Source: an uncultured Planctomycetia bacterium (GTDB lineage: Bacteria; Omnitrophota; Gorgyraeia; Tantalellales; Tantalellaceae). From it: 64,000 bases of DNA. Below are positions 6,896 to 29,141 of this stretch, piece after piece. A program made the position numbers and the translations under genes. Under the pieces are notes generated by a model. The model did no database searches. It was not told where the DNA came from and saw only the letters and a list, made by a program, of their open reading frames with translations. Every line of letters starts with the position of its first letter. The first letter of the stretch is position 1. Location of the stretch: positions 75,366 through 139,365 of the forward strand of contig CAZGQR010000003.1 in NCBI GenBank assembly GCA_964527765.1, in the 5' to 3' direction.

Positions 6896-8323
6896 CTACC
6901 TTTCCAGTCCTTCCCAGATAACTTCGAAACGCTTCTTAAGATCATCGGTGGAGAACGGCCAGACCGTGCGCCCGTAAAGAGCCTGGGTTACTTCCTTGTA
7001 GGAAAGCTTGTTCATCCTGAACTTAGGTATTTTATTGTCGATCTCAAGACAGTAGCGCATGAGCAGGAGCTGTTTCTGGACCATGTGGGGAAGCAAAAAG
7101 TGCTGCTGCACGGTCTCCCGGGCATGCTTGCTGAGAGTTTCCCGCAGCAGTTTATCTTCCAGGATAGACCTTATTGCCCGGAATATTTCGGCGCGCTCAT
7201 AAGGCTCGACCAGAAAACCGTTATGCCCGTTCACGACCTGCTTCTTTATCCCCCCGACCTTACTGCCTACCACGGGAGTCCCCTGCCACATCGCCTCAGA
7301 GACCACAAGACCGAACCCTTCCTTTGTGGAAACATGGACAAAGCAATCGGCGATCGTCAGAAGCGAGCCGATGATCTCGTCGTTATTTTCCACATTGAGC
7401 AAAAGGTGGATGTCCTCTTCTCCCTCGGCGGCTTTTTTCATCTCTTCGTACATCTTCATGCCCTCGGGGTCGTCGGTGGCGGAATTGCCGACCAGGATAA
7501 GGAGCGGGTGGGCCCCTTTTATGGGATTTTTTTTCAGAAGTTTAAACGCTTCTATGATAGCCCTCTGGTTCTTATGAATATCGTACCGTGATACCGCTGC
7601 CACTATCGGCCGTTCCGGATCTATATTATGCTTGTTGAACAATTGTTCCAGGGTCTTCAGGGCCTCCTTCCTGGAGCGGGGTTTATTCTTCGCCCGCAGG
7701 GGGTCGATCGAGGGGGTTATTTCGTAAGCGGGGATCTGTATGTTGTCCCTCATAAATTCCTTCGCCGTAAAGATAGCCCCTTCGTATTGGTTGATATAAG
7801 GAAGCAGAAAACGCCAGATCCTGCGGCTGGCGCTTGAAGTATCTATATGGCACCGCCAGAATATGTGGCCGTATACATTGCCGTTCATGATTATAGCGGC
7901 GGGCTGCGGGTCGTGGATAGTGACCATGTGCCCCACGACTTCTACCCCGCGGGTATTTTCATCGATCGTGTCAAGATAGGCGTGGAAGATCTCCCTGAGC
8001 GTGATGGTCTGGTCGACCCCCTGAAGCAGGTTGTGGAATTTCTTCGTCACCGTGAAAAATTCTTCGCTGCCCTCTATGACGAACCACCTTGCGTCGATGC
8101 CGAGCCCTCTCGCGAACGGTACCACGCTCTGGAGCATCTCCGCGACGCCGCCGCCGATAAAAGTGGAGTTTACGTTCGCCCATACTTTCTTCTCCAGGTC
8201 CCCGGCCAGGAACTTGATATTGTCCATCAATTCCTTCCCGACAAAAGGCTCATACAGATCGACATTAACGGGCTCAAGCGGAACATATTCGTTCCCGTAT
8301 TTTCTGCTCTTATCATCAAACAT
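6896..8323 (-). CDS. treT: trehalose glycosyltransferring synthase-like GT4 enzyme (TreT-like)
   Basis: NVNSTFIGGGVAEMLQSVVPFARGLGIDARWFVIEGSEEFF...HNLLQG closely matches the N-terminal signature of archaeal/bacterial TreT as recalled from memory. Confidence 0.55.
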   Translation of the reverse strand: MFDDKSRKYGNEYVPLEPVNVDLYEPFVGKELMDNIKFLAGDLEKKVWANVNSTFIGGGVAEMLQSVVPFARGLGIDARWFVIEGSEEFFTVTKKFHNLLQGVDQTITLREIFHAYLDTIDENTRGVEVVGHMVTIHDPQPAAIIMNGNVYGHIFWRCHIDTSSASRRIWRFLLPYINQYEGAIFTAKEFMRDNIQIPAYEITPSIDPLRAKNKPRSRKEALKTLEQLFNKHNIDPERPIVAAVSRYDIHKNQRAIIEAFKLLKKNPIKGAHPLLILVGNSATDDPEGMKMYEEMKKAAEGEEDIHLLLNVENNDEIIGSLLTIADCFVHVSTKEGFGLVVSEAMWQGTPVVGSKVGGIKKQVVNGHNGFLVEPYERAEIFRAIRSILEDKLLRETLSKHARETVQQHFLLPHMVQKQLLLMRYCLEIDNKIPKFRMNKLSYKEVTQALYGRTVWPFSTDDLKKRFEVIWEGLER

Positions 8324-22767: not shown

Positions 22768-22931
22768 TTCTTCCTCCTATGTAACCACTGTTTTACTACA
22801 AGTAAGAATATATTAAATATTGTAGTCGTATTAGTAAAAGAGCCTGTAAGTTGTGTGATTTTACGATAACCCCCCGCCAGAAAAGAACTTGCATTATTAA
22901 CAACCTGTGGATAAGTACGGGATAACTTTAA
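22768..22931. promoter_or_regulatory. dnaA-dnaN intergenic region with DnaA box and AT-rich tract (possible second oriC module)
   Basis: TGTGGATAA (complement of TTATCCACA) at 22906-22914; AT-rich aagaatatattaaatattgtagtcgtattagtaaaag. Confidence 0.4.
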
Positions 22932-27215: not shown

Positions 27216-27292
27216 GGACCGTTTGTCATGCTCCTACCAGGGCCCCTCCGCCCGGTGTGGATCCTCCCTGTACGGAGCATGACAAACGGTCC
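27216..27292. repeat. long inverted repeat: perfect 19-bp stem with 39-nt loop that can form 5 further pairs
   Basis: GGACCGTTTGTCATGCTCC (27216-27234) and GGAGCATGACAAACGGTCC (27274-27292); inner CAGGG/CCCTG pairs; no T-tract on either strand. Confidence 0.6.
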
Positions 27293-27309
27293 AACCGCTG
27301 GCTACCTTG

Positions 27310-27325
27310 GTTTCCACGTGGAAAC
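27310..27325. promoter_or_regulatory. 16-bp perfect palindrome GTTTCCACGTGGAAAC, parS-like, upstream of the parAB promoter
   Basis: Differs from canonical parS TGTTTCACGTGAAACA by one extra C:G pair in each half. Confidence 0.45.
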
Positions 27326-27385
27326 TTTTACTTTAATGCACCATTATTCCGGACCGGAAAAACATCAACTATTTTGCCCCTGCCC

Positions 27386-27414
27386 TTGACTTTGTGAAAA
27401 TCATGTGCTATATT
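27386..27414 (+). promoter_or_regulatory. sigma70-type promoter for parA-parB
   Basis: TTGACT, 17-nt spacer, TGcTATATT extended -10. Confidence 0.5.
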
Positions 27415-27457
27415 TTTTGCAAATAAAAAGTTTCACCCGCACAGTTGATCAAAGATA

Positions 27458-27471
27458 TTTCCACGTGGAAA
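27458..27471. promoter_or_regulatory. second copy of palindrome TTTCCACGTGGAAA in the parA 5' leader
   Basis: 14-bp perfect palindrome about 25 nt upstream of parA ATG; adjacent GTTTCAC half-site at 27429-27435. Confidence 0.45.
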
Positions 27472-27496
27472 CCAAGAGGCGGACAGCGAAAACAGC

Positions 27497-28315
27497 ATGA
27501 AAAAAATAGCTTTCTGTAATCAAAAAGGCGGTGTGGCAAAAACGACGTCGGCCTTAAATATTGCTGCGTACCTCGCCTTGAATGGCAAAAAAACCCTTCT
27601 GATCGACCTGGACCCTCAGGCTAACGCCACCAGCGGACTCGGCATCAATAAAGACGAAATACGACACAGCATTTATAATGTTCTCCATGAACACATCGGG
27701 CTGGATGAGGCCATCAAACCTACCGAGATCGACCTCCTGTCAGTGCTCCCCTCAAACATAAATTTGACCGGGGCGGAAGTTGAATTGGTAAATGTTATGG
27801 GCAGAGAGTACCGTCTCAAAAAAGCCGTGCAGGAGGTGCAAGGGAGTTTCGAGTTTATAATCTTTGACTGCCCGCCCTCCTTGGGCCTTTTGACGATAAA
27901 CGGGCTGACCGCAGCGAATTCGGTGATCATCCCCATTCAGTGCGAATACTACGCGCTCGAGGGGTTGAGCCAATTGATCAAGACAGTAAATCTCGTCCGG
28001 GAGAATCTCAACGGAAAACTGGAGATAGAAGGTGTTTTAATGACGTTGGCGGACTACCGGACAAATTTGACGAAAGAAGTCATAGGTGAAGTCAAACAGT
28101 ATTTTGGCGACAAGGTATATAAGTCTATAATCCCGCGGACAATAAAGCTTACAGAAGCCCCGGGGTTTGGAAAACCGATAGCTCTTTATGCAAAAGATTC
28201 GGTTGGCGCAAAAAAATATGAGGAAGTGACCCGGGAGATCCTCAAGCTCCCACTAAAAACAGAACCCATTGAAAATGAAGGAGTTACAACAAATATGGAG
28301 GAAAGTTATGGATAA
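27497..28315 (+). CDS. parA: chromosome partitioning ATPase ParA/Soj
   Basis: Deviant Walker A KGGVAKTT; 272 aa. Confidence 0.9.
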   Translation: MKKIAFCNQKGGVAKTTSALNIAAYLALNGKKTLLIDLDPQANATSGLGINKDEIRHSIYNVLHEHIGLDEAIKPTEIDLLSVLPSNINLTGAEVELVNVMGREYRLKKAVQEVQGSFEFIIFDCPPSLGLLTINGLTAANSVIIPIQCEYYALEGLSQLIKTVNLVRENLNGKLEIEGVLMTLADYRTNLTKEVIGEVKQYFGDKVYKSIIPRTIKLTEAPGFGKPIALYAKDSVGAKKYEEVTREILKLPLKTEPIENEGVTTNMEESYG

Positions 28316-29141
28316 AAGACTGGGGAAAGGATTAGACGCTCTTATTTCGGAAGATGTCAGTAAAGGCAAAGAAAAGGTTGAAAAAATCAGAACATCAGAG
28401 ATCGCGCCCAATCCCCTTCAACCAAGAAAAAGGTTCAGCGAAGAAAAAATGGACGAACTTATTTGTTCCATACGGGAAAAAGGAGTCATCCAGCCGGTGT
28501 TGCTCAGGCCCACAGGAGGAGGATACGAGCTTGTTGCGGGGGAACGGCGCTGGCGGGCCGCGCAAAAACTGCAGATCGAAGAAGTTCCCGCCATAATAAG
28601 AGACGACATAGACGACGCCAACAGCCTGGAGATCTCGCTTATTGAAAACATCCAGAGAGAAGAGCTGAACCCCATAGAAGAAGCGAATGCTTATCAGGAA
28701 TTGATCGGCCAGTTTGAATATACGCTGGACAAGGTCGGGCAGATGATGGGAAAGGACAAAACAACGGTTTCCAACAGCCTGCGGCTGTTGACCCTCCCGG
28801 AGGAGATACAGAACTATGTTGAAGAGGGGAAGATCTCTGCCGGCCACGCTAAGGCCATCCTGTCCATCACCAGCGAACAGAAGAGGAAAAAAATCGCCAA
28901 AACAATAATGCGAAAAGGAATTTCCGTCCGGGAAACGGAACAGCTGGTGCGTAAGCTTACGGAATCGAAACCGAAGCTGAAAAGAACGAAGGAACCCGAA
29001 ATAGCGCAGATCGAAGAGGCCTTGCAGCACAAACTTGGCACAAAAGTGACCGTTCACAAAGGGCAAAAAAGGGGGCGCATCGAGATCCAGTATTTTTCCA
29101 ATGAAGACCTTCAGCGTTTATTGCGGCTGATCCTTCAGTAG
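28308..29141 (+). CDS. parB: chromosome partitioning protein ParB/Spo0J
   Basis: GERRWRAA ParB box, HTH region; start ATG 28308 after GGAGG (8-bp overlap with parA) chosen over ORF start 28269. Confidence 0.85.
   Translation: MDKRLGKGLDALISEDVSKGKEKVEKIRTSEIAPNPLQPRKRFSEEKMDELICSIREKGVIQPVLLRPTGGGYELVAGERRWRAAQKLQIEEVPAIIRDDIDDANSLEISLIENIQREELNPIEEANAYQELIGQFEYTLDKVGQMMGKDKTTVSNSLRLLTLPEEIQNYVEEGKISAGHAKAILSITSEQKRKKIAKTIMRKGISVRETEQLVRKLTESKPKLKRTKEPEIAQIEEALQHKLGTKVTVHKGQKRGRIEIQYFSNEDLQRLLRLILQ

Follow-up and report, generated by a model that had tools for sequence, protein, structure and literature searches.

The two palindromes found upstream of the parA and parB genes in the window (the whole stretch of 64,000 nucleotides analyzed here) are very probably the parS sites of this Omnitrophota bacterium, in the form of a natural variant, GTTTCCACGTGGAAAC. 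The ParB/parS pair is the textbook centromere, and is almost unchanged across the bacteria. The sites of the window can be interpreted, with considerable confidence, as origin-proximal parS centromeres of a variant class, GTTTYCACGTGRAAAC, recognized by the ParB that is encoded downstream. Judged by its sequence, this protein is an ordinary chromosomal ParB in all but one respect, the presence of a lysine (K151) in place of the arginine R173 of the Caulobacter protein, the residue that contacts the outer guanine of the canonical site.

The parS-like palindromes that an earlier, sequence-only reading of this DNA had placed at 27310-27325 and 27458-27471 are confirmed here. They share the 14-mer TTTCCACGTGGAAA, which is present in exactly two copies in the 64-kb window (27311-27324 and 27458-27471), with no further copy there even when two mismatches are allowed, the chance expectation for an exact copy, from the base composition, being approximately 2e-4. 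The canonical parS, TGTTNCACGTGNAACA, has no match in the 64-kb window at up to two mismatches, and the count that had been proposed, genome-wide, as a check of the reading is, within the window, two for the 14-mer and zero for the canonical site. Between the end of the first palindrome and the -35 hexamer of the predicted parAB promoter there are 60 nt, and the second begins 43 nt past the -10 and ends 24 nt ahead of the parA ATG (27497), in agreement with the earlier description of a TTGACT-17-TATATT promoter flanked by one site about 60 bp 5' of the -35 and another in the leader. The outer flanks CTTGG and CCAAG are also common to both sites, which extends them into 19-nt inverted repeats (27306-27324 and 27458-27476) around the promoter; these flanks are absent from the sites of the relatives. 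A solitary GTTTCAC half-site had also been described, at 27429-27435. The heptamer is located at 27430-27436, and occurs twice in the window, where approximately 7.8 copies would be expected, that is, it is rarer than chance. Given a frequency no higher than chance and the lack of conservation in the relatives, GTTTCAC was rejected as a half-site, and carries no signal.

Table 1. Features of the origin-proximal parAB locus, with coordinates in the 64-kb window.
Feature	Coordinates	Strand	Description
dnaA	22932..24341	-	ORF list
Putative variant parS site 1	27310..27325	.	Perfect 16-bp palindrome GTTTCCACGTGGAAAC; same 16-mer 5' of parA in relatives
Predicted parAB promoter	27386..27414	+	TTGACT-17-TATATT, extended -10 TG; 10/12 match
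Putative variant parS site 2	27457..27472	.	ATTTCCACGTGGAAAC, 15/16; inner 14 bp a perfect palindrome; parA leader
parA	27497..28315	+	Chromosomal-type Walker ATPase, 272 aa; Pfam AAA_31 5.5e-67, CbiA 6.3e-27
parB	28308..29141	+	277 aa; Pfam ParB_N 6.2e-33, HTH_ParB 5.9e-37, ParB_C 2.6e-10
ParB recognition-helix segment GKDKTTVSNSLRLLTL	28749..28796	+	Translation; K151 codon 28758-28760

The genes of the window are arranged in the order dnaA, rnpA, yidD, yidC, a Jag_N-only gene, an intergenic region of 324 bp, parA, parB, pyrR, and pyrB, and this parAB pair is the only one in the 64 kb. The sign of the GC skew switches at approximately 24 kb, at dnaA, which places the sites some 3 kb from the replication origin, and DnaA boxes are found at 22906, 24388, and 24421. 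The relatives present the synteny gyrB-dciA-dnaN-dnaA and rnpA-yidD-yidC-jag-parA-parB. As in the chromosomal ParABS systems, a parA without an N-terminal DNA-binding extension adjoins parB near oriC. The parAB promoter is predicted to be strong and sigma-70-like, and its TTGACT...TATATT or TATAGT module is present in eight relatives. The same intergenic region contains, between the jag stop codon and the first site, a near-perfect hairpin of 77 nt (27216-27292; -54 kcal/mol, z = -6.8 in RNA folding), which is single-copy in the window and belongs to no Rfam family, the Rfam scan of the intergenic region having returned nothing beyond a chance miRNA match. The 32-nt core of this hairpin is found, 100% identical and in the opposite orientation, in the relatives L082 (9009-9040) and L145 (657-688), and its arms vary between genomes, yet pair with each other within each one.

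The parB product has the three parts of a chromosomal ParB, that is, an N-terminal CTP-binding domain with a GERRxR box, an HTH, and a C-terminal dimerization domain, with GERRWR at residues 78-83 and ENIQRE at residues 113-118. An identical protein (P0001) is present in the database, its close homologues are named Candidatus Omnitrophota, and its best solved relatives are the Thermus Spo0J (3.6e-56) and the Caulobacter ParB (1.4e-53). Several metagenome-assembled genomes (MAGs) labeled "uncultured Planctomycetia" also encode Omnitrophota-like YidC, ParA, and ParB, and such MAG labels are uncertain. The comparison of the HTH recognition residues that had been suggested in the sequence-only reading was made with the Caulobacter ParB (alignment to 6T1F), and reveals K151 at the position of R173, where the chromosomal ParABS systems have arginine. 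The residue R173 hydrogen-bonds guanine 1 of parS, is always kept in the parS-specific variants of a deep mutational scan, and has been described as absolutely conserved among the ParB orthologues (PMC7383237).

The conservation of the sites in relatives, the other check that had been called for, was assessed in 12 loci that had been selected only by their ParB protein, namely the window, L081-85 and L206-209 (Omnitrophota), and L210-211 (Elusimicrobiaceae), which total approximately 276 kb. The GTTTYCACGTGRAAAC motif lies 5' of parA in all 12 of these loci, from two phyla, in the form of 22 sites with zero to two mismatches. Neither this motif at any other position nor the canonical parS (at up to two mismatches) was found in the approximately 276 kb. 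The case that had been named as counting against these sites, 14-mers that are unique and unconserved with canonical parS elsewhere, was not seen in these loci. In the nine further Omnitrophota loci (ParB 65-87% identical, 12-21 kb covered in each), one or two copies of the motif are located within 470 bp upstream of parA, at least one of them an exact 16-mer in eight of the nine loci, and the other sites have one or two mismatches. The link between the motif and parA persists where the upstream synteny differs (L084, L210, and L211). In the two Elusimicrobiaceae loci, which are near dnaA, three (L210) and two (L211) perfect GTTTTCACGTGAAAAC palindromes were found at distances of 74 to 1634 bp 5' of parA, with some of them inside coding genes, and the canonical parS was not found in either locus. 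The GTTTTCACGTGAAAAC sequence differs from the canonical TGTTTCACGTGAAACA solely by the replacement of the outer TG with GT.

The lysine is as regular as the site. It occupies position 173 in all 116 classifiable close homologues of the window ParB and, among the matches listed in the genome scan, in every one of the at least 21 ParBs adjoining an exact 16-mer, some of which are only 40-46% identical to the window protein. The most divergent lysine-type ParB is that of L191 (Elusimicrobiaceae), and its classifiable homologues (119/119) all have K at this position, read GKSK, and keep Q162. The control ParBs of other lineages, which are distant proteins (39-49% identity) among the matches listed in a metagenome search with ParB alignment, have R at 173 in 61-62 cases, and Q in two Noc-like proteins. 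In the 80 control loci, CACGTG palindromes with G at position 2 were found in 31, and the variant site in none. The best 150 representatives of the 50%-identity clusters include 128 with R, five with K, and one with H at this position, and it is this rarity that accounts for the lysine-type ParBs having been missed by earlier surveys.

Other substitutions are less consistent. The Q162L, A177S, and (mostly) R204K differences of the Omnitrophota branch are not universal among the lysine-type ParBs, in which G201, which faces position 6, is unchanged. The substitutions S172D and R204K were also considered as specificity determinants, and were rejected, both being common in the arginine-type ParBs. 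Among the proteins compared, then, lysine 173 is the sole feature that always accompanies the GT-type site. The claim that the palindromes are divergent centromere sites for the encoded ParB is thus supported by their conservation beside parAB in two phyla and by their co-variation with the recognition residue of this protein. In a neighbor-joining tree, the lysine-type ParBs form five groups, with deep nodes that do not resolve between one and several origins, and few evolutionary events may lie behind the co-variation of K173 with the variant site.

Two further sets of loci are worth recording. The closest non-lysine relative, P0241, is 52% identical to the window ParB, comes from a locus with Omnitrophota-like synteny (L212), and has histidine at 173; the only CACGTG palindrome of this locus, TTTTTCACGTGAAGAA (8233-8248), overlaps the parA start codon, and this locus may represent an intermediate state. 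In addition, nine loci (L007, L012, L018, L019, L031, L037, L046, L059, and L060) encode a group of arginine-type ParBs ending in GHAK, several of which read GRSRAAVANAMRLLDL. Neither the canonical parS nor any other recurrent palindrome was found up to 12 kb around the parB genes of these nine loci, and their sites must be elsewhere or different.

The relationship between the variant and the canonical site may be read in two ways. The sequence-only reading had placed an extra C:G pair beside the central CACGTG in each half, and had deduced from this an altered geometry of the ParB dimer. The inner 12 bp of the sites, TTCCACGTGGAA, are those of the Pseudomonas/Myxococcus form of parS, however, and among 102 half-sites from the lysine-type loci, only position 5 varies appreciably (C in 90, T in 11), this C/T variation at positions 5/12 being that of the N (wobble) position of the canonical TGTTNCACGTGNAACA. 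Given that both the inner 12 bp and the wobble position match the canonical parS, the difference is placed in the outer two base pairs, where TG is replaced by GT, and, with the inner 12 bp read in the canonical register, no new dimer geometry would be needed. The canonical chromosomal site has an essential G at position 2, and the variant has T. For the canonical ParBc1, surface plasmon resonance (SPR) imaging gave values of 10, 11, and 9 for the symmetric G2T, G2A, and G2C changes, where the wild type gave 55 and random DNA 9. The same protein tolerated changes at positions 1/16 and 5/12, with 43 vs 55 for a change at position 5 (PMC5450999 S1). The site can thus be assigned, with moderate confidence and from the alignment of the half-sites, to the same register, with the change limited to the two outermost base pairs, on which residue 173 acts. 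For K151, the partner may be the T:A pair of position 2, the guanine now found at position 1, or the backbone.

The alternative, in which the insertion of one base pair in each half moves the canonical half-sites apart, with a change in the geometry of the dimer, is considered unlikely. The half-site can indeed be written as GTTTCAC plus one base (GTTT-C-CAC), and the guanine would be kept, one base pair further from the dyad, G being found at position 1 in 99 of the 102 half-sites. The inner 12 bp are, however, those of the TGTTCCACGTGGAACA-type parS, and the one variable position (C/T) is as far from the dyad as the canonical N. A guanine contact that had been kept would also predict that the arginine be kept, and it is lysine in every case, while G201, which faces position 6, is unchanged.

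In the mechanism proposed for the variant parS sites, each ParB monomer would dock its HTH on one 8-bp arm in the canonical register, and the binding of the site would trigger the CTP-dependent closure of the clamp, the protein having both the GERRWR and the ENIQRE motif. Once closed, the clamps would slide over the promoter region of approximately 150 bp and the neighboring origin DNA, forming the partition complex on which, as presented by ParB, ParA would act. The occupancy by ParB would also damp parAB transcription, as a secondary effect that is probable because the promoter is flanked by the two loading sites, and some autorepression of parAB is likely. The promoter is flanked by one upstream site and one leader site in the window, L082, L206, L207, and L209, L081 has a leader site only (its contig ends approximately 15 bp upstream of the -10), and in L083, L084, L085, and L208 every site lies upstream of the promoter. 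The bracketing of the promoter that the sequence-only reading had described thus recurs in several relatives, but this geometry is not conserved. Given the variation in the spacing between sites and promoter, centromere function is taken as primary, and autoregulation can only be inferred. This variation, together with the intragenic position of sites in the Elusimicrobiaceae, points to loading, rather than operator action, as the conserved role.

It would be improbable, then, that the sites serve only as an operator for ParB self-repression, with the true centromeres located elsewhere. Flanking sites of this kind, and the ParB repression of parS-adjoining promoters documented in Pseudomonas (PMC5521831), are what such an arrangement would lead one to expect, but the position relative to the promoter shifts among the Omnitrophota, the Elusimicrobiaceae sites lie up to 1.6 kb upstream and partly within coding genes, and the 276 kb around the origins contain no other candidate centromere. 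A ParB loading site is, besides, inherently a centromere and a local silencer at once. The involvement of another CACGTG-binding regulator in place of ParB, as the sequence-only reading had also suggested, is very improbable, although in the Thermoleophilia the motif occurs in pairs flanked by a sensor kinase and an HtrA-like protease, with no ParB nearby. In two phyla, the motif tracks parAB despite changes in the neighboring genes, it tracks one DNA-reading residue of ParB without exception, and no regulator gene consistently adjoins it. The least credible of the alternatives is that the palindromes act as RNA hairpins, one as a terminator after jag and the other as a leader structure before parA. 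The first site, followed by TTTTACTTT, was flagged as terminator-like, and the 16-mer lies between an A-run and a T-run in one low-GC genome. The predicted folds are weak, however (-7.7 kcal/mol, z = -1.8, and -3.8 kcal/mol, z = 0), the T-runs that follow the sites are not kept in the relatives, and it is the exact sequence, rather than the pairing, that is conserved, with no compensatory changes.

A collection of genomes was also scanned for the exact 16-mer, which recovered at least 120 stretches, these loci being selected by the motif itself, and the genome of the window is not among the matches listed. The motif is not exclusive to ParB, because it also occurs without a nearby ParB in the Thermoleophilia, 5' of the HtrA-like protease, and in a genome with 26-29% GC. 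Pairs of GTTTYCACGTGRAAAC 23-46 bp apart were found in Thermoleophilia, Gaiellales, and "Actinomycetes" MAGs with 70% GC (L089, L092, L131, L136, L160, and L163), and it is in L131 that the pair separates the kinase from the protease. Longer GC-rich palindromes enclose the single copies of other MAGs of these groups (L132 and L189), as well as one of the two L092 copies, and no ParB was found near the loci of these three groups. The low-GC assembly CASFZN01 (26-29% GC) contains at least 18 exact 16-mers over several contigs (L088, L091, L102, L107, L110, L120, L135, L151, L158, L159, L166-168, L187, L188, L196, and L200), most of them after an A-run and before a T-run, which resemble bidirectional terminators or an uptake-type repeat.

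In the Lentisphaerae/Kiritimatiellae MAGs, one to six exact 16-mers are found in mnmG/gidA (L150 250-595, L152 35-50, L178 7299-7911, and L147 6409-6637), in frame (VSTWK), within an insertion that interrupts the GIDA domain of this origin-proximal gene. The arrangement resembles an array of centromere sites contained in a coding expansion. In a Planctomycetota contig (L130 5971-6277), a parA of plasmid type and a weakly ParB-like gene are immediately preceded by four exact 16-mers, with an integrase and a large methyltransferase-like gene as neighbors, and the locus is probably part of a mobile element with this same centromere sequence. In the Gemmatales and Frigoriglobus, a 30-bp palindrome, TGTAAAA...TTTTACA, has the 16-mer as its core (L134 485-500, L199 2833-2848, L133 4595-4610, and L173 4860-4875), with at least two loci per genome. 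Clusters of the exact 16-mer are also present in Burkholderia/Burkholderiales contigs (L195 250-785, with four copies in 520 bp, L155 590-4613, and L112 1453-2623), and probably represent the centromeres of secondary replicons of the Bsr3-like type. The comparison of the L195 array with plasmids returned no match.

K173 and GTTTYCACGTGRAAAC may tentatively be proposed as a third natural specificity class of the chromosomal ParB/Noc family, beside R173/parS and Q173/NBS, orthogonal to the canonical parS, and serving as the primary-chromosome centromere across the Omnitrophota and Elusimicrobiota, and perhaps also the Kiritimatiellota and Lentisphaerota, although the case for this broader proposal falls somewhat short of even. 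A deeply diverged lineage with lysine for arginine and a moved guanine would provide a natural test of a change in DNA-reading specificity, beside the ParB-to-Noc switch, and the annotation of parS and origins by motif will miss the phyla with GT-type sites. If the pair is orthogonal to the canonical ParB/parS, it would represent an extra tool for the labeling of DNA loci in living cells. Cultured members of Elusimicrobium exist, which makes the idea testable. A text search of the literature for the 14-mer and the 16-mers recovered nothing relevant in main texts and one occurrence, in a supplement, and no paper linking the Omnitrophota to ParB or parS was found in the literature searched.

In comparison with the canonical ParABS systems (Bacillus Spo0J, Caulobacter ParB, and Thermus Spo0J, with parS TGTTNCACGTGNAACA), the locus of the window has the same parA-parB operon near oriC, a ParB that is 40-50% identical to the solved ones and has the same ParB_N (GERR), HTH_ParB, and ParB_C domains, and a site with the same 16-bp palindromic form, inner 12 bp, and wobble position. 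It differs in the outer two base pairs, GT rather than TG, and in residue 173, K rather than R, to which the Omnitrophota branch adds its changes at residues 162, 177, and, mostly, 204. The Pseudomonas/Myxococcus variant of parS, TGTTCCACGTGGAAC(A/G), is identical to the window site over positions 3 to 14, but keeps G2 and R173 and is still bound by the canonical ParB (43 vs 55), whereas the window variant alters position 2.

The Noc protein of the Firmicutes, with its NBS site ATTTCCCGGGAAAT, provides a parallel for a coupled change of residue 173 and the outer base. Noc has Q173, which reads adenine at that position (PMC7383237); R173/G became Q173/A there and K173/T here, and the outer arm TTTCC is common to both. 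Noc also needs R201 and K179/K184, and reads a CCCGGG center, whereas the window ParB has G201, S/T at 179/184, and a site with a CACGTG center, and is encoded in the origin parAB operon rather than at a noc locus. Where Noc is defined by Q173, R201, K at 179 and/or 184, and ATTTCCCGGGAAAT, the corresponding residues of the window ParB are K, G, S, and T.

The sites themselves also resemble those of the Bsr3 systems of Burkholderiales secondary replicons (parS12J GTTGTCACGTGGAAAC, parS12D GTTTCAACGTTGAAAC, and parSc3 GTTGTCACGTGACAAC), all 16-bp palindromes that begin with GTT, and the window presents the same arrangement, more than one copy of a 16-bp GTT...AAC palindrome, with CG at its center, 5' of parAB. 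In the natural Ralstonia pickettii parS12J, GTTGTCACGTGGAAAC, one arm is GTTTCCAC, and GTTTCCACGTGGAAAC itself was bound by the Ralstonia plasmid ParB12J in SPR imaging (41, where the native site gave 54 and random DNA 11), weakly by ParB12D (17 vs 42), and not by ParBc3 (9) (PMC5450999 S1). The binding of the 16-mer by a ParB is thus demonstrated for a family of the plasmid type. The Bsr3 ParBs belong to plasmid and secondary-replicon families, as described for them (ParBc1 and ParBc3 are 26% identical; PMC5450999), whereas the window ParB is probably of the primary-chromosome type, as judged by its solved relatives and its origin locus. A review table gives only G2-type sites for primary chromosomes, and what appears to be new here is the use of this motif by the ParB of a primary chromosome.
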